Positions 9,952-16,982 of a DNA stretch of 64,000 bases are shown here, piece by piece. The position numbers and the translations under genes are program-made. Source of the DNA: an uncultured SAR86 cluster bacterium (lineage in GTDB: Bacteria > Pseudomonadota > Gammaproteobacteria > Magnimaribacterales > D2472). Position 1 is the first letter of the stretch; every line of letters begins with the position of its first letter. The stretch is taken from positions 22,939-86,938 of the forward strand of contig CACECK010000001.1 in the NCBI GenBank assembly GCA_902557965.1, read 5' to 3'. The notes under the pieces are model-generated. The model did no database searches. It saw only the letters and a program-made list of their open reading frames with translations, and had not been told where the DNA came from.

Positions 9952-10320
9952 TTATTCAGTCACGATTCCAATTTTAAGTCTCGCAATGGCGTTTCTTTCA
10001 TCTGAATCATTTAATGACCATGAACTATTTAATAGTCTTGTTGAGTATTGCTTGTTATATAAGAAAGGCATTATTAATTGAAAAAGGCCAAATGTGACCA
10101 AAGAAAAAATTAAATGGAATACACCAATTGATATTTCTCCTCTAAAAATAGGAACAAAGAAGCCAAAGAAAAAATAAGTCCAAGAGTACCCAACAAAACA
10201 ATTTTTTTGAATACCTGATTCATTATGCTTAACTTTAATTTTCTTTTGCCATCCAAGGACAAGGGTGCCAATTATCATAGGAGAAAAAATAAGAAGTAAA
10301 ATTGAAAATGTTAATGCCAA
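9952..10320 (-). CDS. hypothetical membrane protein
   Basis: 122 aa with 3 predicted TM segments. No confident family. Confidence 0.6.
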   Translation of the reverse strand: MALTFSILLLIFSPMIIGTLVLGWQKKIKVKHNESGIQKNCFVGYSWTYFFFGFFVPIFRGEISIGVFHLIFSLVTFGLFQLIMPFLYNKQYSTRLLNSSWSLNDSDERNAIARLKIGIVTE

Positions 10321-10401
10321 TGCTCACTCCTGCAAGCTCTGCCTTTAAAATTATTACAATTTGTAAAAACTGAAACGACTGGTTCTTTTATATTCATAAT
10401 T

Positions 10402-10812
10402 TTATGACTCTTTATTTGGATCCCATATCACCAAGTTTTTGGTTTTTAGTCTATTTACAACTAACTTGTATCTTGATTGCTCTTCCTTCCATTCCTTTAA
10501 CCATGTTGCGCCGTCTCTCTCTGCATCAACAAAGACTGCATTGGTAAATGCTAAGGGTAATATTACTGCAACGTGAATCGCTATACTTGCCACGGTATTA
10601 TAGTTAAAGAGCCCTAGATAGTTTGCTGCCAGAAATCCAAAGAACACACTCCATATAGTAAACAAAACTAACATAAAGTATGTCTGTAAACTTGGATCAG
10701 GTATGTGCCTTAGTGGATTATATCTAACGTCCATTACTCTTCTCCAGCCACTTACAAGTTTCATAACAGTTCTTCTGAATAAACTAGGTTTTTTTGTATT
10801 TGGTTCAATCAT
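10402..10812 (-). CDS. hypothetical membrane protein
   Basis: 136 aa. AGGAGG lies 4 nt upstream of the ATG. Two central TM segments. Confidence 0.65.
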   Translation of the reverse strand: MIEPNTKKPSLFRRTVMKLVSGWRRVMDVRYNPLRHIPDPSLQTYFMLVLFTIWSVFFGFLAANYLGLFNYNTVASIAIHVAVILPLAFTNAVFVDAERDGATWLKEWKEEQSRYKLVVNRLKTKNLVIWDPNKES

Positions 10813-10909
10813 CTTTCCTCCTTTTAAATCTTATAAACTCTTTAATGACATGCATACCAACAGCCATCCATGTCACTATAACCAAACTCCAAAACAATAT
10901 CTCAATCAT
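10805..10909 (-). CDS. candidate 34-aa single-TM protein overlapping the start of the downstream gene
   Basis: Hand translation: MIEILFWSLVIVTWMAVGMHVIKEFIRFKRRKDD. Its stop TGA (10807-10805) overlaps the ATG at 10812 (gATGATTGA). Too short for the ORF track. Confidence 0.3.
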   Translation of the reverse strand: MIEILFWSLVIVTWMAVGMHVIKEFIRFKRRKDD

Positions 10910-10984
10910 GTAAATTTAACAAATTTTTAATTCTTTTTTAAAATTTTTTGAAAGTTTTTTCTTTGAAAACCATTCTATCTTGTT

Positions 10985-11671
10985 TCATCGCCTTAATAGT
11001 ATAGCGATCCAACGACCAAGATTTAAAATATCAGCTAACGCTGCCGACACATAAGTGAGGGCTGCTGCTCTAAGAATGCGACTAACGGCTTTTTCGTTTG
11101 ACTGTGACACGTATTTCCCTTCCCTCAATATAGGAAGTGCTTTAGAAAAACTTGCATCAAATTCAATAGGTAAAGTTACCACATGAATCATCATGCGAGC
11201 TATAAAACCGGATAGCCCTAGAAAAAGTAATAAAGAAAATGGCATTGGATGTCGGGTAATAATACCAATCACTGGGGATAAAGAAATAATTGCTACACTC
11301 CAACGGGCCACTTTATCAACAACGGGAGCCATCTTTGTTCTGGTTGCCAGACGTTTATCACCTTGCTGATCCTGAATCGCATGTCCAACCTCATGAGCCG
11401 CGATAGCGATTGCGGTTAATGATTTAGATTCATAATGCTCTCGCAAAAGCCTAACTTTTTTTTCAATTGGATCATAGTGATCTCCTAGCTCAGTTACTTC
11501 GACCTCAACGTCTTTTAAAGAAAATCGCTCAATCAAGTGCTGTGCTAGCTCTCCGCCAGTACCTGGGATTTCAGGCTTTTCCAATGAATACCTCTTCATG
11601 ACCAACTTTACCCACAAAGATGGTCCAAATATTAGTGCTAAAACTACGAGCAAGCCCGCTGCTAAAAACAT
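10985..11671 (-). CDS. zinc metallopeptidase (membrane-associated, HExxH)
   Basis: 228 aa. HEVGHAIQ zinc motif. N-terminal TM and C-terminal TM segments, as in the putative neutral zinc metallopeptidase family. Confidence 0.8.
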   Translation of the reverse strand: MFLAAGLLVVLALIFGPSLWVKLVMKRYSLEKPEIPGTGGELAQHLIERFSLKDVEVEVTELGDHYDPIEKKVRLLREHYESKSLTAIAIAAHEVGHAIQDQQGDKRLATRTKMAPVVDKVARWSVAIISLSPVIGIITRHPMPFSLLLFLGLSGFIARMMIHVVTLPIEFDASFSKALPILREGKYVSQSNEKAVSRILRAAALTYVSAALADILNLGRWIAILLRR

Positions 11672-11691
11672 ATTTTATCCTCTTAAAAAAG

Positions 11692-11847
11692 TTATTCTTC
11701 TGATTTTATCTTTCTTAGATTCATCAAGGAAGCTGTTGCCAATATGACAAGCAATGAAATACCAAACTGCTTTTCATCAACAATTGAAACAACAAGGATT
11801 GCTGCTGCCCACATTATCGATTGAGAAATTAACAACTTTTTATTCAT
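11692..11847 (-). CDS. candidate 51-aa membrane protein
   Basis: Hand translation: MNKKLLISQSIMWAAAILVVSIVDEKQFGISLLVILATASLMNLRKIKSEE. Its ATG overlaps the stop of the upstream ORF (ATGA). Confidence 0.4.
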   Translation of the reverse strand: MNKKLLISQSIMWAAAILVVSIVDEKQFGISLLVILATASLMNLRKIKSEE

Positions 11848-12044
11848 TTATAATATTTTAATAAAACGTAATTGGCTATTAAGTCTAAAAAAATAAACCC
11901 TCCTAGTATCAACCACATAAATTCACCGCTATATACAGTAATTGTTAAAACTACAATAATTCCTATGACAAAAGCACGGATCCAAGAGTATTTTTTATAA
12001 AGTTTACTTTGAGTCCAAAAAAATTCTTTTAAAAAAATCGGCAT
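11844..12044 (-). CDS. 66-aa membrane protein
   Basis: Track ORF with two TM segments. It starts immediately after the repeat copy at 12051-12107. Confidence 0.5.
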   Translation of the reverse strand: MPIFLKEFFWTQSKLYKKYSWIRAFVIGIIVVLTITVYSGEFMWLILGGFIFLDLIANYVLLKYYK

Positions 12045-12050
12045 TATTTA

Positions 12051-12107
12051 TTTAAATCTCTGTTTTCTTCTACTCCACCGCCACTGATTAGTTTTAAAGA
12101 GTGATTT
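12051..12107 (-). repeat. glmS-3'-end-like repeat, copy 4 (core 12070-12087)
   Basis: The core ctactccaccgccactga reads tca gtg gcg gtg gag tag (SVAVE-stop) on the minus strand. Class-A flank aaatctctgttttctt at 12054-12069. Confidence 0.6.
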
Positions 12108-12480
12108 ACATATCTAGCAATGGATTTCTTCCCCATTTATTTTCATCTTCTTTTGCTGGAAGCATTAGTATAATTGAAATTACGAATAGCCCAATAATTG
12201 TAATGTAGGATAATTGCCACCATCCAGAAATACCTCTATCTTGAAGTCTTCTTGAGGTTATTGATGTAGCCGGAATAATAACTACGATTTGAAAAAGCGC
12301 TGAAAGTGGTCCATAACCAAATTCTTCACTAAATATTCCTGCCGGTGTTTCAAGCAATGCTAAAAAGAATGATATCAGAGATATAGAAAGTGTAAAATAC
12401 CAAAACTCGCTTCTGCATGCTCTTCCGCTAAAATTTTTCCAGTTTATAAAACCTGAAATAAATGATTCTTTAATATTCAT
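12106..12480 (-). CDS. DUF805 family inner-membrane protein (paralog 2)
   Basis: GRACRSEFWYF and SRRLQDRGISGWW motifs. The ATG at 12480 overlaps the upstream stop (ATGA), so I prefer it over the track start at 12498. Confidence 0.85.
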   Translation of the reverse strand: MNIKESFISGFINWKNFSGRACRSEFWYFTLSISLISFFLALLETPAGIFSEEFGYGPLSALFQIVVIIPATSITSRRLQDRGISGWWQLSYITIIGLFVISIILMLPAKEDENKWGRNPLLDM

Positions 12481-12902
12481 AGTGGATTTCTTCCCCATTT
12501 ATTTTCATCTTCCTTTGATGGCAGCATTAGAAAAATGAAAATTACAAAAATCCCAATAATAGTGAAATAAGATAATTGCCACCATCCTGAGATTCCTCTG
12601 TCTTGAAGTCTTCTGGAGGTTACAGATATAGAAGGAAATAAAATAATTGCATTAAATATTAAGGTTAATGGTCCAATAGGATTTCGTACACTTTGCCATT
12701 CTTTATCTCTAAACTCTATTCCATAGGAAAGTATAGTTGGAAAACCCTCAATGGATGCATAAAGAATTGCTTCGATAAAACTAATCAAAAAACCTGCAAT
12801 AAATAATGCTAAGCAAAAATACCAGAACTCACTTCTACGTGCCCTTCCACTGAAATTATTCCAATTATTAAAAACTGATATGCATGCCTCTTTTATGCTC
12901 AT
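12477..12902 (-). CDS. DUF805 family inner-membrane protein (paralog 1)
   Basis: GRARRSEFWYF and SRRLQDRGISGWW. The C-terminal ~55 aa are near-identical to the downstream paralog. Confidence 0.85.
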   Translation of the reverse strand: MSIKEACISVFNNWNNFSGRARRSEFWYFCLALFIAGFLISFIEAILYASIEGFPTILSYGIEFRDKEWQSVRNPIGPLTLIFNAIILFPSISVTSRRLQDRGISGWWQLSYFTIIGIFVIFIFLMLPSKEDENKWGRNPL

Positions 12903-13006
12903 AATTTTTTTAATTATTTATTGTGAAATCAAATTATATACTTTAGAAAAACACATATTGGTTTTTTAAGGTTCTAATCTATATAAGATTTGTATATTTT
13001 TAAAAG

Positions 13007-13099
13007 TTAGAAATCACTGTTCGAAACTACTCCACCGTCATTGAGTGTTTTCGTTTGCAGAATAAATTTCTTGTAGAAATTTATATATTTTTTGTCCAT
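13007..13099 (-). CDS. candidate 30-aa ORF embedded in the long repeat (MDKKYINFYKKFILQTKTLNDGGVVSNSDF)
   Basis: Conserved against the ORF at 14646-14744. Most nucleotide differences in the first 13 codons fall at third positions. No SD. Confidence 0.25.
   Translation of the reverse strand: MDKKYINFYKKFILQTKTLNDGGVVSNSDF
13011..13099 (-). repeat. glmS-3'-end-like repeat, long copy (core 13027-13044)
   Basis: 89 bp, with 74/89 identity (hand alignment) to 14656-14744. The core reads tca atg acg gtg gag tag (SMTVE-stop) on the minus strand. Confidence 0.8.
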
Positions 13100-13189
13100 A
13101 TAAAAAATTATACAATGATTTTAATTGTAACCTTTACTTCTCATATAATTAATGATAAGTTTACGTTACATTTTAGTGAGGAGAAGAAA

Positions 13190-13585
13190 ATGGGTCTTGA
13201 AATATTAATACCGGTATTAGGAATAATGACAGGAATAATAGTGCCTGTATCTGTCTTTGTTTGGTTATATTTTGAGAGCAAGGATAAAAACAAAACAATA
13301 TTAGAGATATCGAAAAATATTGATGATCCTTCAAAAATTGAAGACTTAATAAACATGCTTGACGATAGAAAAAAAGAACCAATTGATTATAGAAGAACTG
13401 GGGTTGTTACATTATTTACTGGTGTGGGTCTGTTTCTATTTGGTGTATTTTTTCTTGGATCAATCTTAAAAGGGGTTGGTGCATTGGTTGCTGCTATTGG
13501 TTTAGGACAAATAATTGCTGGTTATCTTTATCCGAACACAAGTGAAGAATTAACAAATGCTGTTGAAGATTTTGAAAAAAAATAG
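13190..13585 (+). CDS. 131-aa membrane protein
   Basis: Internal ATG preceded by GAGGAG (gtgaggagaagaaaATG). One N-terminal and two C-terminal TM segments. Ends in NAVEDFEKK. The track start at 13055 runs through the repeat and is unlikely. Confidence 0.6.
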   Translation: MGLEILIPVLGIMTGIIVPVSVFVWLYFESKDKNKTILEISKNIDDPSKIEDLINMLDDRKKEPIDYRRTGVVTLFTGVGLFLFGVFFLGSILKGVGALVAAIGLGQIIAGYLYPNTSEELTNAVEDFEKK

Positions 13586-13592
13586 GAGGGGG

Positions 13593-13802
13593 ATGATGAT
13601 CTATAAAAGAAATTTGGTTGTACATGTGGGTCTTTTAATAAGTTTACTAGGCATTGCCTTATATGATCCTTTGGGATCGATATATGAAGGTGCAGGATTG
13701 ATAGTTTTAGTAATTGGGTTAATTTGTTTGTTTGTTGGTAATAAAAATACAACTGAGTACGAATCAATTAATAGAGCAGTTGAAAACTTCGAAAAGAAAT
13801 AA
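13593..13802 (+). CDS. 69-aa two-TM membrane protein
   Basis: ATG preceded by AGGAGGGGG. Ends in RAVENFEKK, the same tail as the upstream protein. Confidence 0.6.
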   Translation: MMIYKRNLVVHVGLLISLLGIALYDPLGSIYEGAGLIVLVIGLICLFVGNKNTTEYESINRAVENFEKK

Positions 13803-13823
13803 GTTTGAGGAAATGAAATAACT

Positions 13824-14249
13824 ATGAATTTTTACATACGTTTTTTAATGTTATTTTTATGTGGAGTCGTGCAAGTCTTTTTTGCAATTCATCTTTTATT
13901 GGATTTAGGTATATTTCAACTTCCATCTGATCTAATGTTCATACCTGGGGTACTTATAATTTTAACTTCGATCGTTTTGGTATTATCTTATTACTATGGT
14001 AACGAAGAGATAAATAATAAACTTTATGACGAATATGCAGCAGATAGATTTTATAGATTAGGGAATTTAGGATACGCACTTAATGGCATAGGTTTATTTA
14101 TAATATTTAGCATTCAAGATTACCAAAACTGGGATATCCAAATCGCATCAAATATGATTTTACAAATTGCTGCTTATGCTTGGTTAGTTTTTGGAGTACT
14201 TTTAACATGGTTTGCGATTGGAGATTATCAAGAGTCCCAGCATGGGTAA
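13824..14249 (+). CDS. 141-aa four-TM membrane protein
   Basis: Track ORF with hydrophobic segments. Overlaps the start of the XRE gene by 8 nt. Confidence 0.6.
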   Translation: MNFYIRFLMLFLCGVVQVFFAIHLLLDLGIFQLPSDLMFIPGVLIILTSIVLVLSYYYGNEEINNKLYDEYAADRFYRLGNLGYALNGIGLFIIFSIQDYQNWDIQIASNMILQIAAYAWLVFGVLLTWFAIGDYQESQHG

Positions 14250-14460
14250 AAATCATTACAAACTTCTAAACAATCTTGAGCAATACAGAAAAAAAGCAGG
14301 TCTGACTCAACAAGAACTTTCAAATAACGCAGATGTTTCAAGGAAAAGTATCAATGCTATTGAAAATGGGATTTACGTGCCCTCAACTGTTCTAGCATTA
14401 AAAATATCAAAGATTTTTAATTGTAAAGTTGAAGATTTATTTGAACTGCCTAAGAATTAA
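14242..14460 (+). CDS. XRE family helix-turn-helix transcriptional regulator (72 aa)
   Basis: GLTQQELSNNADVSRKSINAIENGIYVPSTVLALKISKIFNCKVEDLF is a classic short Cro/C1-type HTH. This type is commonly encoded next to small membrane proteins. Confidence 0.85.
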   Translation: MGKNHYKLLNNLEQYRKKAGLTQQELSNNADVSRKSINAIENGIYVPSTVLALKISKIFNCKVEDLFELPKN

Positions 14461-14510
14461 TTCTGCAAACGAAACTATTCAACCGTCACTGAGTAGATTT
14501 GTTTGGTGCA
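14449..14510 (-). repeat. glmS-3'-end-like repeat, copy 2 (core 14475-14492) with class-B flank
   Basis: The core ctattcaaccgtcactga reads tca gtg acg gtt gaa tag (SVTVE-stop). The flank cctaagaattaattc (14449-14463) matches cctatgaattaattc next to the genuine glmS end. Confidence 0.6.
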
Positions 14511-14512
14511 TT

Positions 14513-14641
14513 TTATTCTTCCTTGTAATCGTCTGCGAGAATCCCCTTTTCTTTTAAAGTCTTTGTAAGTTTTTCTAGACGCACAAGTGCAACCACTCCG
14601 ACCATTCCAAACACAAAACCCATTACTGCCAACCCTTCCAT
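14513..14641 (-). CDS. candidate 42-aa single-TM protein
   Basis: Hand translation: MEGLAVMGFVFGMVGVVALVRLEKLTKTLKEKGILADDYKEE. AAGGA lies 9 nt upstream of the ATG. It fills the 0.2-kb cassette between two repeat copies. Confidence 0.45.
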   Translation of the reverse strand: MEGLAVMGFVFGMVGVVALVRLEKLTKTLKEKGILADDYKEE

Positions 14642-14645
14642 AATT

Positions 14646-14744
14646 CTATCCTTTTAAATCACTGTTCCAACTTACTCCACCGTCACCGAGTGTTTTCGAG
14701 TGACGAATAAATTTGTTATAAAAAGTAATATATTTTTTATCCAT
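14646..14744 (-). CDS. candidate 32-aa ORF embedded in the long repeat (MDKKYITFYNKFIRHSKTLGDGGVSWNSDLKG)
   Basis: Paralogous to the ORF at 13007-13099. Its ATG overlaps the stop of the 130-aa ORF (gATGGATAA). Confidence 0.25.
   Translation of the reverse strand: MDKKYITFYNKFIRHSKTLGDGGVSWNSDLKG
14656..14744 (-). repeat. glmS-3'-end-like repeat, long copy (core 14672-14689)
   Basis: 89 bp, with 74/89 identity to 13011-13099. The core reads tcg gtg acg gtg gag taa (SVTVE-stop). Confidence 0.8.
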
Positions 14745-15129
14745 CTAATTTATTTCTATTTTTCGGCAAGCAGAATATTAAAGTGATGATAAATGAAATT
14801 ATGGAAATTGGCATAGTAAATGCTAAGACATACATGGTTGTCTCAACCAATTGTGATGCTGTTCCATCAATCACATCATCAAATCTCCATGCCCAAGATC
14901 TATAGTGTAGACAGAAAGCAAACCCCCAAGCACCGCACAGAATACCTATAGCACTTGAGTCCTTGATAGTTAAATAACCTGCGGTTATTAGTAAGGCAAC
15001 GGCAATTAAGTCAGGTAAATATCCAGTAATTGTTTGTCCAAACTTTATCGTAAATAAGGTCTCGAGTGTAAAGTGAATAAGGGCAATAAAAATAGTAAAA
15101 ATAGAAAATTTATAAAGAAATGCTTTCAT
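14737..15129 (-). CDS. 130-aa four-TM membrane protein
   Basis: Track ORF. It is the first cassette downstream of glmS, and its start lies 27 nt after the glmS stop. Confidence 0.6.
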   Translation of the reverse strand: MKAFLYKFSIFTIFIALIHFTLETLFTIKFGQTITGYLPDLIAVALLITAGYLTIKDSSAIGILCGAWGFAFCLHYRSWAWRFDDVIDGTASQLVETTMYVLAFTMPISIISFIITLIFCLPKNRNKLDG

Positions 15130-15155
15130 ATCCTATGAATTAATTCGTCACCGAA

Positions 15156-16982
15156 TTATTCCACAGTGACTGATTTAGCTAAATTTCTTGGCTGATCAAT
15201 ATCAGTGCCTCTAAGAAGAGCTACCTCATATGAAAGAATTTGAAGGGGTATCGTATAAATTATTGGCGTTAGTAGAAAGTCGCATTTTGGCATATTTATC
15301 AGTTTTCCTGATTTAAGATCCATGGATATTGATGGATCTGAAAAGACATATAGAGTTCCACCTCTGGCTTTTACTTCCTCTAAATTTGAAACAAGTTTTT
15401 CAGCTATCTCACTTTCTGGAGCTAATGCTATTACAGGCATATTCTCATCTATTAATGCCAGTGGACCATGTTTTAATTCTCCAGCTGGATATGCTTCAGC
15501 ATGAATATAGGAAATCTCTTTCAGCTTTAATGCCCCCTCTTTTGCAATTGGATAAAAAATACCCCTTCCAAGGAATAAAGCATTATCTTTGTTAGCTATT
15601 TCTGGTGCTATTTCCAGTATCGTATCTTTAATTTTTAGAGTTTCTTCAATAGTATCTGGCAATGATCTCATTGCGGTTATAACTCTTGTTCTTAGTTTGG
15701 GGTTCATGTTTCTACTTTTTGCAAGAGATAAAGCTAGAAGCATTAGTGCAGCTAATTGCGTTGTGAATGCCTTTGTAGAAGCAACACCGATTTCAGGACC
15801 AGCATTCGTGAAAATTGAATAGTCTGATTCTCTTGCCAGTGAACTGGTAGGCACATTACAGATTGTTAAAGTTGATAAGTAATTTTTTTCTTTTGCGTAT
15901 CTTAATGCTGCAAGAGTGTCAGCTGTTTCACCTGATTGAGAAATGGTTATTAGCAAGGAGTCTTCATCGACATGAGGGTTTCTATAGCGATATTCAGACG
16001 CATAATCTATTTGAGTCGGTAGTTCTGAGATAGAAGAAAACCAATTTGCGGCAACTCTGCCTGCGTGCAAACTTGTTCCACAGGCTACGACTTGGATCCT
16101 TTTTACATTCTTAAAAATATCAGAAGAGCCAAGGCCAAAAATATTATCTAGTACATCGTCACCCCCGACCCTGCCATCAATAGTATTTAATATTGCTTGC
16201 GGCTGTTCATAAATTTCTTTCTCCATGAAATGCTTAAATTTACCTTTTGAGATTGCCTGGTCAGATATGTCTATCTTAGTGATCTCTCTTGAAGCTTCTT
16301 TTTTATTGCTGTCGTAAATAGTAAAGCCCTCTGCAGAAATTTGTGCAACATCACCATCTTCAAGAAAAATAAACTCATTGGTTAGCTGTCCAATTGCTAA
16401 AGGGTCTGATGCGGCAAGAAACTCATCTGTTCCAATCCCAATCAACAGCGGTGATTTATTTCTTGCAAGTACAATATTTGAATTGTCCTCTTTATCGACT
16501 ACTGCAATGGCATATGCGCCATCAAGTTTTTCTTTTGTGAGGTACATGGAATCAATTATTGAGTTACCTTTGCTAAGAAAAAAATCTAACATGTGAGCTA
16601 TTAGCTCAGAGTCTGTCTGGGATGTAAAAGAGTAGCCTTCAGTCTTCAAATAATCTTTAAGCTCTATATAGTTTTCAATAATTCCATTGTGAACGATATA
16701 AACCCTGTCTTTTGATTGGTGTGGGTGGGCATTTTCTTCAGACGGTTCCCCATGAGTTGCCCATCTAGTGTGAGCTATGCCGAGCTTACTTTTTGGCTTC
16801 TCTTGAATCATCTTATCCTCAAGTAACTTTACTTTTCCTAAAGTTCTGAGATGGGCTATCTGTTTATTTTGATGAAGCGCTATACCCGCAGAGTCGTATC
16901 CTCGATACTCCATTTTATGAAGTCCTTGAACAAGAAGCTTTCCAACATTTCTATTTGAAGCAGCAGCTATAATTCCACACAT
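15156..16982 (-). CDS. glmS: glutamine--fructose-6-phosphate aminotransferase
   Basis: 608 aa. N-terminal MCGI (catalytic Cys2), SIS domains, C-terminal AKSVTVE. Confidence 0.97.
   Translation of the reverse strand: MCGIIAAASNRNVGKLLVQGLHKMEYRGYDSAGIALHQNKQIAHLRTLGKVKLLEDKMIQEKPKSKLGIAHTRWATHGEPSEENAHPHQSKDRVYIVHNGIIENYIELKDYLKTEGYSFTSQTDSELIAHMLDFFLSKGNSIIDSMYLTKEKLDGAYAIAVVDKEDNSNIVLARNKSPLLIGIGTDEFLAASDPLAIGQLTNEFIFLEDGDVAQISAEGFTIYDSNKKEASREITKIDISDQAISKGKFKHFMEKEIYEQPQAILNTIDGRVGGDDVLDNIFGLGSSDIFKNVKRIQVVACGTSLHAGRVAANWFSSISELPTQIDYASEYRYRNPHVDEDSLLITISQSGETADTLAALRYAKEKNYLSTLTICNVPTSSLARESDYSIFTNAGPEIGVASTKAFTTQLAALMLLALSLAKSRNMNPKLRTRVITAMRSLPDTIEETLKIKDTILEIAPEIANKDNALFLGRGIFYPIAKEGALKLKEISYIHAEAYPAGELKHGPLALIDENMPVIALAPESEIAEKLVSNLEEVKARGGTLYVFSDPSISMDLKSGKLINMPKCDFLLTPIIYTIPLQILSYEVALLRGTDIDQPRNLAKSVTVE

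Follow-up and report, generated by a model that had tools for sequence, protein, structure and literature searches.

The locus described here raises the question of why the end of one gene should recur several times downstream of that gene. The window, by which we mean the whole 64-kb stretch of SAR86 DNA that was analysed (contig CACECK010000001.1), carries glmS on its minus strand, and the same strand holds five same-orientation copies of the 18-nt glmS terminus that span positions 12070-15173. We refer to these copies as cores; the core pattern, TCN GTN ACN GTN GAR TAR, is 18 nt long and encodes SVTVE-stop. In our judgement the array is quite probably the product of repeated insertions by a large serine recombinase (LSR) at a bacterial attachment site (attB) overlapping the glmS terminus, in which case the cores would be the centres of recombination sites. 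The five copies are as follows.

15156-15173, minus strand: true end of glmS, TCAGTCACTGTGGAATAA
14672-14689, minus strand: extra copy, TCGGTGACGGTGGAGTAA
14475-14492, minus strand: extra copy, TCAGTGACGGTTGAATAG
13027-13044, minus strand: extra copy, TCAATGACGGTGGAGTAG
12070-12087, minus strand: extra copy, TCAGTGGCGGTGGAGTAG

A sequence-only reading made earlier had reported four extra copies of the glmS end in one orientation, and all four were located on the minus strand. Its estimate of 12-14 identical positions out of 18 was close, with a recount giving 13-14/18 for each copy, so that the lower bound of 12 was not borne out. The blocks between copies, described there as about 0.2-1.4 kb long with 1-4 small open reading frames (ORFs), measured 179-1430 nt and held 1-4 ORFs each. 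Searching the 64 kb with the consensus from that reading, at up to three mismatches, returned exactly five sites in one orientation, whereas dinucleotide-preserving shuffles of the window gave a mean of 0.02 matches and a maximum of 1; the permutation check that it had proposed therefore speaks against chance. As the copies are confined to 12070-15173, the motif is not scattered through the window. KSVTVE had been called the near-universal C-terminus of GlmS, and 28 of the 29 diverse taxa compared have it. A known RNA family or tRNA fragment was ruled out as the identity of the repeat: Rfam (at gathering thresholds) and tRNA scans were empty, with no Rfam family, tRNA, or tmRNA in the whole window. 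We also rejected the idea that the copies are fragments of the glmS gene, since translation upstream of them in the glmS frame is not GlmS-like past 5-6 codons, which points to cores of attachment (att) sites.

We then compared the interval between glmS and a downstream zinc-metallopeptidase gene across SAR86 genomes (L-numbers below are labels of the compared loci or contigs). In all loci the array is flanked by glmS/glmU on one side and the Zn-peptidase gene on the other. Among ~30 SAR86 genomes, this interval ranges from 0.49 kb (L011) to 7.3 kb (L024) and holds 0-7 extra core copies per genome, in glmS orientation. The units between cores, termed cassettes, have a median length of 608 nt, and up to 7 of them occur in 4-5 kb. 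Exact SVTVE-stop 18-mers beyond the glmS end itself number 50 within the SAR86 arrays (68.8 kb), with one exact core in reverse orientation, as against 0 exact cores on both strands of 1.1 Mb of SAR86 flanking sequence. The differences among cores fall on codon third positions. Outside SAR86, 50 glmS loci of other phyla had no extra core copy. Homology of the window with ~25 SAR86 relatives ends at 15156/15157, that is, at the core, and L002, which encodes an identical GlmS protein, diverges past core position 8 into another cassette. Two outcomes that the sequence-only reading had named as damaging, a motif unlinked to glmS and an interval invariant in relatives, were thus looked for: the motif has no exact copy in the flanks and none elsewhere in the window, and the interval is instead hypervariable. 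The sole inverted exact core within an array lies at L014 12054 (reverse strand, TCAGTGACTGTAGAGTAA) and may mark an inverted cassette. Outside the SAR86A-like group, multi-core arrays were observed downstream of an LSR (L150 10094-12548, L158 6457-7059, L086 2588-3836, and L098 2401-6709), and cassette stacking is therefore not limited to the SAR86A-like lineage.

Comparison of these loci established the anatomy of the putative recombination site. Similarity between cores continues past the 18 nt into structured arms of ~16-20 nt, arranged so that an arm x' directly follows the upstream core of a cassette and its reverse complement x directly precedes the downstream core. There are many arm types, such as AAATCACTGTTYAAAYYTAA, AATTCTGCAAACGAAAACAC, and GTAGACACCTTTATACAC. 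Arms of the same cassette reach at least 12/20 complementarity in 47 of 91 pairs, compared with ~10% of mismatched controls, and arms on either side of one core are complementary at the control level. Mirroring brings the left and right half-site consensuses into register about a symmetry centre that lies between A7 and C8. From the matched arms and mirrored half-sites it follows that an excised unit would carry an imperfect palindrome of ~54 bp centred on the AC of the Thr codon. The recognised site would thus comprise arms and core together, ~54 bp, and not 18 nt; the arms had gone unnoticed in the sequence-only reading. We also note a GC-rich hairpin (CCCGCATTCTGCGGGG) in e-type cassettes, which lies ~25 nt inside the P' arm; a complementary CCGCAGAAATAGTGG is located close to the P arm, and together the two give terminal inverted repeats of ~44 nt (instances in L002 2777-2830, L007, L016, L023, L025, and L027); LSR elements with the same inner arms carry CTCTTATTAATCCTCCATGAACTCTCTAT at the hairpin position.

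Three independent lines of comparison agree in placing the exchange point at the AC of the glmS Thr codon. Sites sharing their left arm only agree at core positions 3 and 6 (0.83 vs 0.32 and 0.51 vs 0.25, respectively) and show baseline agreement from position 9 onward. Sites sharing their right arm only behave conversely, linkage of positions 9-18 being confined to that arm, so that the profile switches sharply between core positions 6 and 9. L012 and L087 share 99.96-99.98% identity over 15 kb and are set apart solely by one 6.8-kb LSR element; the attB of this pair has left and right halves TCAGTCAC and TGTAGAGTAG, the attL TCAGTCAC and AGTGGAATAA, and the attR TCCGTTAC and TGTAGAGTAG. On the four contigs that encode the identical LSR protein P0039, the P arm and TCCGTTAC are unchanged, whereas the right half that follows differs on each.

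The association of an LSR with this site was established from relatives of the window. A 551-aa ORF in L024 matches PF00239 (Resolvase, 6e-24), PF07508 (Recombinase, 1e-11), and PF13408 (Zn_ribbon_recom, 3e-4); the YxRVST and DRLSR catalytic motifs are kept in 23 LSR homologs, and the LSR matches PHROG 95 "integrase" at 2e-67. Its NCBIfam scores are 81 bits for CcrB (cut-off 900), 60 for CcrA (700), and 45 for CcrC (900), with XisF also far below cut-off. LSR elements stand directly after glmS in L024, L083, L087, L101, L107, L118, L123, and L195. The units in L087 (6.8 kb) and in L024 and L083 (6-9 kb) begin exactly at the glmS core, and in L101, L107, L118, and L123 glmS lies at the far end of a 7-10.5 kb LSR unit. 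The suggestion that integrative elements, inserting site-specifically and restoring the end of glmS, left the copies behind as scars is supported by the LSR element found at the same site in L024, L083, and L087. The LSR is the last gene of its unit, ~550 aa long, with its stop ~25-45 nt before the distal core, and the units also encode a weak Rep ORF2/G2P-like match.

Beyond these loci, 376 LSR homologs were obtained at E<1e-10 among scored candidates. An SVTVE-stop core lies just 3' of the LSR gene in around two-thirds of 80 metagenomic loci (homologs with 31-74% tblastn identity), and serine recombinases below ~30% identity to the LSR have no such core downstream. The glmS-targeting LSR clade extends to other taxa beyond SAR86. 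Junctions of attP type, in which LSR, P arm, core, and matching P' arm follow one another, were found in L104, L125, L147, L128, L131, and L170, as expected of a free circle or a tandem copy. The LSR unit of L195 is listed in IMG/VR; scanning viral contigs with the single L024 LSR gave no matches, and scanning them with an LSR alignment gave distant relatives only, the best one being an integrated element. Two further arrangements were observed. L091, a 12.4-kb metagenomic contig with one LSR element, has a further gene pair at 10018-12368, a small resolvase and a second LSR of 570 aa, ~3 kb past the first attR, and in an LSR subgroup of 32-34% identity (L153, L154, L159, L161, and L162) the glmS 3' end is convergent and directly follows the LSR gene, so that the layout is reversed and the recombinase occupies the glmS-proximal end of the element.

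With this site anatomy, the window could be divided into four cassettes (cas1-cas4) and their flanks, listed here from glmS outward; cores are given as left half, then right half.

15156-16982, minus strand: glmS, 608 aa, the target gene and conserved proximal flank (ORF; Pfam GATase_6/7 + SIS in relatives)
15156-15173, minus strand: core0, TCAGTCAC then TGTGGAATAA, the working last five codons and stop of glmS
14690-15155, minus strand: cassette 1 (cas1), a 130-aa membrane-protein ORF between P' and P arms
15138-15155, minus strand: cas1 P' arm, ttcggtgacgaattaatt
14737-15129, minus strand: cas1 ORF, 130 aa, membrane protein, no Pfam match
14690-14713, minus strand: cas1 P arm, aatttattcgtcactcgaaaacac
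14672-14689, minus strand: core1, TCGGTGAC then GGTGGAGTAA, left half from cas1 and right half from cas2
14493-14671, minus strand: cassette 2 (cas2), with a 42-aa ORF at 14513-14641
14475-14492, minus strand: core2, TCAGTGAC then GGTTGAATAG, right half from cas3
13045-14474, plus strand: cassette 3 (cas3), four ORFs on the strand opposite to glmS
13190-13585, plus strand: cas3 DUF6249 ORF
13596-13802, plus strand: cas3 68-aa ORF
13824-14249, plus strand: cas3 141-aa ORF
14242-14460, plus strand: cas3 XRE-type helix-turn-helix ORF
13041-13068 and 14455-14482: 28-nt inverted repeat flanking cas3
13027-13044, minus strand: core3, TCAATGAC then GGTGGAGTAG, position 4 G>A, reads SMTVE
12088-13026, minus strand: cassette 4 (cas4), two tandem DUF805 genes, both arms a-type
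12477-12902 and 12106-12498, minus strand: the cas4 DUF805 genes
12070-12087, minus strand: core4, TCAGTGGC then GGTGGAGTAG, central dinucleotide AC changed to GC
11672-12069, minus strand: distal segment with two small membrane ORFs (66 aa at 11844-12044 and 51 aa at 11692-11847)
10985-11671, minus strand: Zn_peptidase_2 zinc-metallopeptidase gene, the conserved distal flank (Pfam PF04298 for the L087 homolog)

The window GlmS has 74-94% identity to its counterparts in ~30 SAR86 genomes. Core0 can be read as an attL-type junction, with a left half that would be chromosomal and a right half supplied by cas1; the right half, TGTGGAATAA, accompanies cas1 in 10/10 contexts of the identical cas1 protein. 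The cas1 arms are complementary with a 1-nt indel, those of cas3 at 19/24 positions, and those of cas4 at 14/24. No further core was detected in the distal segment, and its 51-aa ORF is kept beside the peptidase gene in L005, L007, L009, L004, L025, and L028.

The independent assortment of the cassettes was equally well established by comparison among genomes, and the window cassettes are independent modules. Each of the four was found in other genomes beside different neighbours, which agrees with the tandem stacking of scars proposed in the sequence-only reading, and clustering of all cassettes gave families shuffled across genomes. The cas1 protein is 100% identical on at least 10 contigs, where the unit from TGTGGAATAA through its two arms to TCGGTGAC is constant and its neighbours are of three kinds upstream (glmS or two other cassettes) and eight kinds downstream, with junctions at AC. 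The cas3 protein is 100% identical in at least 10 contexts, directly after glmS in L180 and after several cassettes elsewhere; GGTTGAATAG with tttcgtttgcagaatt is unchanged in 9/10 cas3 contexts, and L176 has TGTAGAATAG. An identical cas3 XRE protein occurs in 150 index blocks and many array contexts, and parts of cas3 match L012/L087 (98%) and L028 (92%). The arrangement in L193 is glmS-cas1-cas3, which is that of the window without cas2, and its junction of TCGGTGAC and GGTTGAATAG is exact. This junction, together with the loss of homology to ~25 SAR86 relatives at the core, fits the polymorphism with breakpoints at the cores that had been predicted. Cassettes with e/k-type arms have inner arms in common with LSR-bearing elements, and a cassette arm matches an LSR-linked arm in the inner 11 nt (GTTTAAACTTA; L018 13809, L097).

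The longest ORF of a cassette is co-oriented with glmS in 68 of 79 cassettes (86%) and opposite in 11, and 12 further cassettes have no ORF. In the window, the cargo consists of two DUF805 proteins, a DUF6249 protein, an XRE regulator, and small membrane proteins without a family match. Cargo across genomes is mostly without a Pfam match; the matches include MORN repeats, TM2, T5orf172, HNH-HIT, NucS-like nucleases, and methyltransferases. Among 72 cassette ORFs from L004-L029, a few cargo proteins matched PADLOC candidate defence families very strongly (PDC-S02 at 1e-140 and PDC-S57 at 2e-74). Other cargo in this set consists of nucleases (T5orf172, HNH-HIT, NucS-like, and Endonuclease VII-like).

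Some details of the window cassettes stand apart from these patterns. The core-to-core sequence of cas2 is 92% identical to L013 12491-12699, where both arms are a-type, and the P arm of this 42-aa cassette is h-type in the window (14493-14518, AATGCACCAAACAAATCTAC) and a-type in L013 (12660-12682). The arm pairs around homologous cas1 cargo differ between the window, L001/L003, and L008, although each pair is self-complementary. Because the same cargo bears different arms in different genomes, arms are replaceable or co-evolve in pairs. The DUF805 pair of cas4 (12106-12902) is a tandem duplication, with 155-nt and 88-nt repeats of 84% and 77% identity, and the two ORFs overlap by 22 nt; L016 14008-14393 is a version of cas4 with a single DUF805 gene. 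Finally, a 93-nt module in two copies that are 83% identical (13011-13103 and 14656-14748) occupies the P end of cas1 and cas3, both b-type cassettes. It reaches well past the arm, contains an ORF of 30-32 aa (MDKKYI...) that runs through the core in a different frame, and is present also in L012, L019, L028, L175, and L188. Candidate roles for this module are an extended recombinase-binding region, which it could be, or a cas3 promoter. We rejected the MDKKYI... ORFs as a peptide gene, as they are off-frame through the cores and reflect the conserved b-type P-end module.

If LSR-mediated insertion built the array, a circular mobile unit would carry the ~54-bp imperfect palindrome as P arm - TCNGTN-AC-NGTNGARTAR - P' arm, and the LSR would cut at the central AC of the Thr codon and join the circle to the end of glmS. 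The incoming right half-site would provide the last glmS codons and stop (N GTN GAR TAR), and glmS would stay intact because the incoming unit brings these codons. The earlier glmS end would be displaced distally, behind the P arm of the new unit, and successive events would stack units one way, as glmS-core-P'1[cargo1]P1-core-P'2[cargo2]P2-core. Autonomous units are 6-10 kb long and encode an LSR and a Rep-like protein, and the window holds only four short units (0.18-1.4 kb) with no LSR. The LSR of rare helper elements would then act in trans, excising and re-inserting recombinase-less cassettes. The window cassettes are most likely mobilised in trans in this way, on account of the shared architecture, the common exchange point, some shared inner arms, and the recent spread of identical cassettes. 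We infer that the cassette genes would be expressed by read-through from glmS.

A number of observations weigh against this explanation. No LSR is encoded in the 64-kb window (the best tblastn E value was 0.58, and tyrosine recombinases were not screened for), as the sequence-only reading had anticipated in calling the array either a fossil or mobilised in trans, and an LSR lies within 10 kb of glmS in just 1 of ~30 SAR86 species representatives. For arm types a, b, c, d, f, g, and h, which are the common ones, we found no cognate LSR. The usual reaction of an LSR is between attP and attB alone, and excision needs a directionality factor; since the targets here are hybrid sites with many right arms, a relaxed, CcrAB-like specificity must be assumed. 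Core4 is without the central AC, and the cas2 arms are mismatched, a' on one side and h-type on the other. Free circles of small cassettes were not observed, a- and b-type arm-plus-core patterns were absent from the viral contigs scanned, and promoter and terminator scans were at chance level and uninformative.

The most serious competitor holds that the cassettes are fossil scars, immobile and decayed remnants of LSR elements whose arrangements differ by homologous recombination between arrays. The lack of an LSR in most genomes would suit it, as would the altered centre of core4, the non-synonymous change in core3, the mismatched cas2 arms, and the mosaic nature of cas3, whose content varies among genomes. 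However, cas1 and cas3 are each 100% identical in at least 10 contexts, with junctions at AC and both arms kept, and the units are compact, with half-sites a few to ~50 nt from the cargo ORFs and a median length of 608 nt. The sharp linkage switch between core positions 6 and 9 also counts against it, because homologous exchange within an 18-nt core would not produce one. We consider this account improbable for the array as a whole. The fossil option raised earlier can accordingly be split: fossil status appears unlikely for cas1 and cas3, because their proteins are 100% identical across many contexts, and is plausible for core4, which is probably an inactive site because its central AC has mutated to GC. 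A different proposal is that another, ubiquitous recombinase moves the cassettes, either an unrecognised enzyme or, for instance, XerC/D, with dif-like palindromes as its sites in the manner of pdif modules or integrative mobile elements exploiting Xer (IMEX), and that the LSR shares the hotspot. Each site is indeed a palindrome with a central region, the cassettes have no recombinase, and the arm sequences covary and are not conserved. Yet LSR elements share the core, the exchange point, and the arm architecture, and some cassette arms match LSR-linked arms over the inner 11 nt noted above; furthermore, the site is ~54 bp with 22 nt between arms, as opposed to the 11-6-11 layout of dif-type sites, and the cores are all direct, where pdif modules alternate in orientation. 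This leaves a Xer-type mechanism very unlikely.

We attach next to no weight to Tn7-like or CRISPR-associated transposon (CAST) insertion into attTn7 downstream of glmS. Although glmS is the classical Tn7 target, the junction lies inside the glmS Thr codon and not ~25 bp past the stop, the window interval has no ORF longer than 176 aa, the recombinase at the site in relatives is the LSR, and what is repeated is 18 nt of the target gene rather than a 5-bp duplication. The attTn7 analogy drawn in the sequence-only reading is therefore misleading: insertion is inside the Thr codon, not 3' of the gene, and does not involve Tn7 machinery. Chance matches or a generic repetitive extragenic palindromic (REP)-like element would draw on the AT-rich, repeat-prone context and nothing else, and such an origin is hardly credible against an expectation of 0.02 in shuffles and 0 copies in 1.1 Mb outside the arrays vs 50 inside. 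LSR-mediated insertion at the glmS end remains the explanation that we prefer.

Among known systems, the SCC/SCCmec elements of staphylococci share much with the SAR86 system. They use a large serine recombinase (CcrAB or CcrC), target the last codons of a conserved housekeeping gene (rlmH/orfX) that the element restores, have direct repeats copying the gene end and terminal inverted repeats at their boundaries, and form tandem units that include recombinase-less ones relying on a recombinase in trans. In contrast, the LSR at the SAR86 site is not a Ccr equivalog (81 bits for CcrB vs 900), the target is glmS and not rlmH, the host is a streamlined marine gammaproteobacterium, and the units are far smaller (median 0.6 kb, mostly one gene) with many arm types. 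Integrons (IntI, attI, and attC) resemble the SAR86 arrays in having mostly single-ORF, recombinase-less cassettes that are co-oriented with an upstream transcribed gene (68/79 ORF-bearing cassettes here), shuffle among genomes, and each carry their own palindromic site of variable sequence and constant architecture; some of the cargo likewise matches candidate anti-phage genes. Unlike an integron, the SAR86 array has no adjacent intI, is flanked by glmS and the peptidase gene, and is associated with a serine and not a tyrosine recombinase. The halves of its palindrome stand at opposite ends of the cassette, rather than at one end as in attC (R''-L''...L'-R', GTTRRRY), and its conserved core is coding sequence of the target gene.

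Phage and integrative and conjugative element (ICE) serine integrases of the phiC31, Bxb1, A118, and TP901-1 type have the same domain architecture as the LSR, and their att sites of ~40-50 bp are, as here, imperfect palindromes with a non-palindromic 2-bp crossover and conservative integration into a gene. They differ in serving one large element with a single attP and a single attB, and are not known to build arrays of short cassettes. Tn7/attTn7 has glmS in common as a safe-harbour landmark, but its mechanism, insertion position, and proteins differ. Tycheposons of Prochlorococcus also belong to an abundant, streamlined marine host and insert repeatedly at one site, with older elements pushed inward and partial target copies as dividers; of the 937 integrase-carrying elements, 27 use an LSR in place of a tyrosine recombinase (bioRxiv 10.1101/2020.12.28.424599). 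Their targets, however, are tRNA genes (none in the window), their recombinases are mostly tyrosine recombinases, and most SAR86 units are tiny cassettes that have paired arms and no recombinase. By their defining features, the system is none of SCC, integron, tycheposon, or Tn7. Searches of the available literature found no published description of a glmS cassette array, and the statement in the sequence-only reading that no such array was known to it still stands.

We give about even chances to the broader proposition that SAR86 and other lineages of the LSR clade possess a serine-recombinase analogue of the integron at the glmS end, a chromosomal platform for the capture, stacking, and reshuffling of single-gene cassettes that each bring a palindromic attP-like site, driven in trans by rare LSR helper elements, expressed by read-through from glmS, and serving populations as a store of small membrane, surface, and anti-phage genes. 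Such a system would add a second, mechanistically independent cassette-array system next to integrons and would be a Gram-negative marine counterpart of SCC elements. The glmS-targeting LSR clade is also a potentially useful broad-host-range integration tool, because its target is short and near-universal (KSVTVE-stop). SAR86 is among the most abundant heterotrophic bacteria of the surface ocean, with a streamlined genome in which few mobile elements have been recognised. The cores are usable as anchors for reading cassette content from metagenomes, aiding population genomics, and a predictable hotspot of cassette exchange would explain part of the SAR86 flexible genome.

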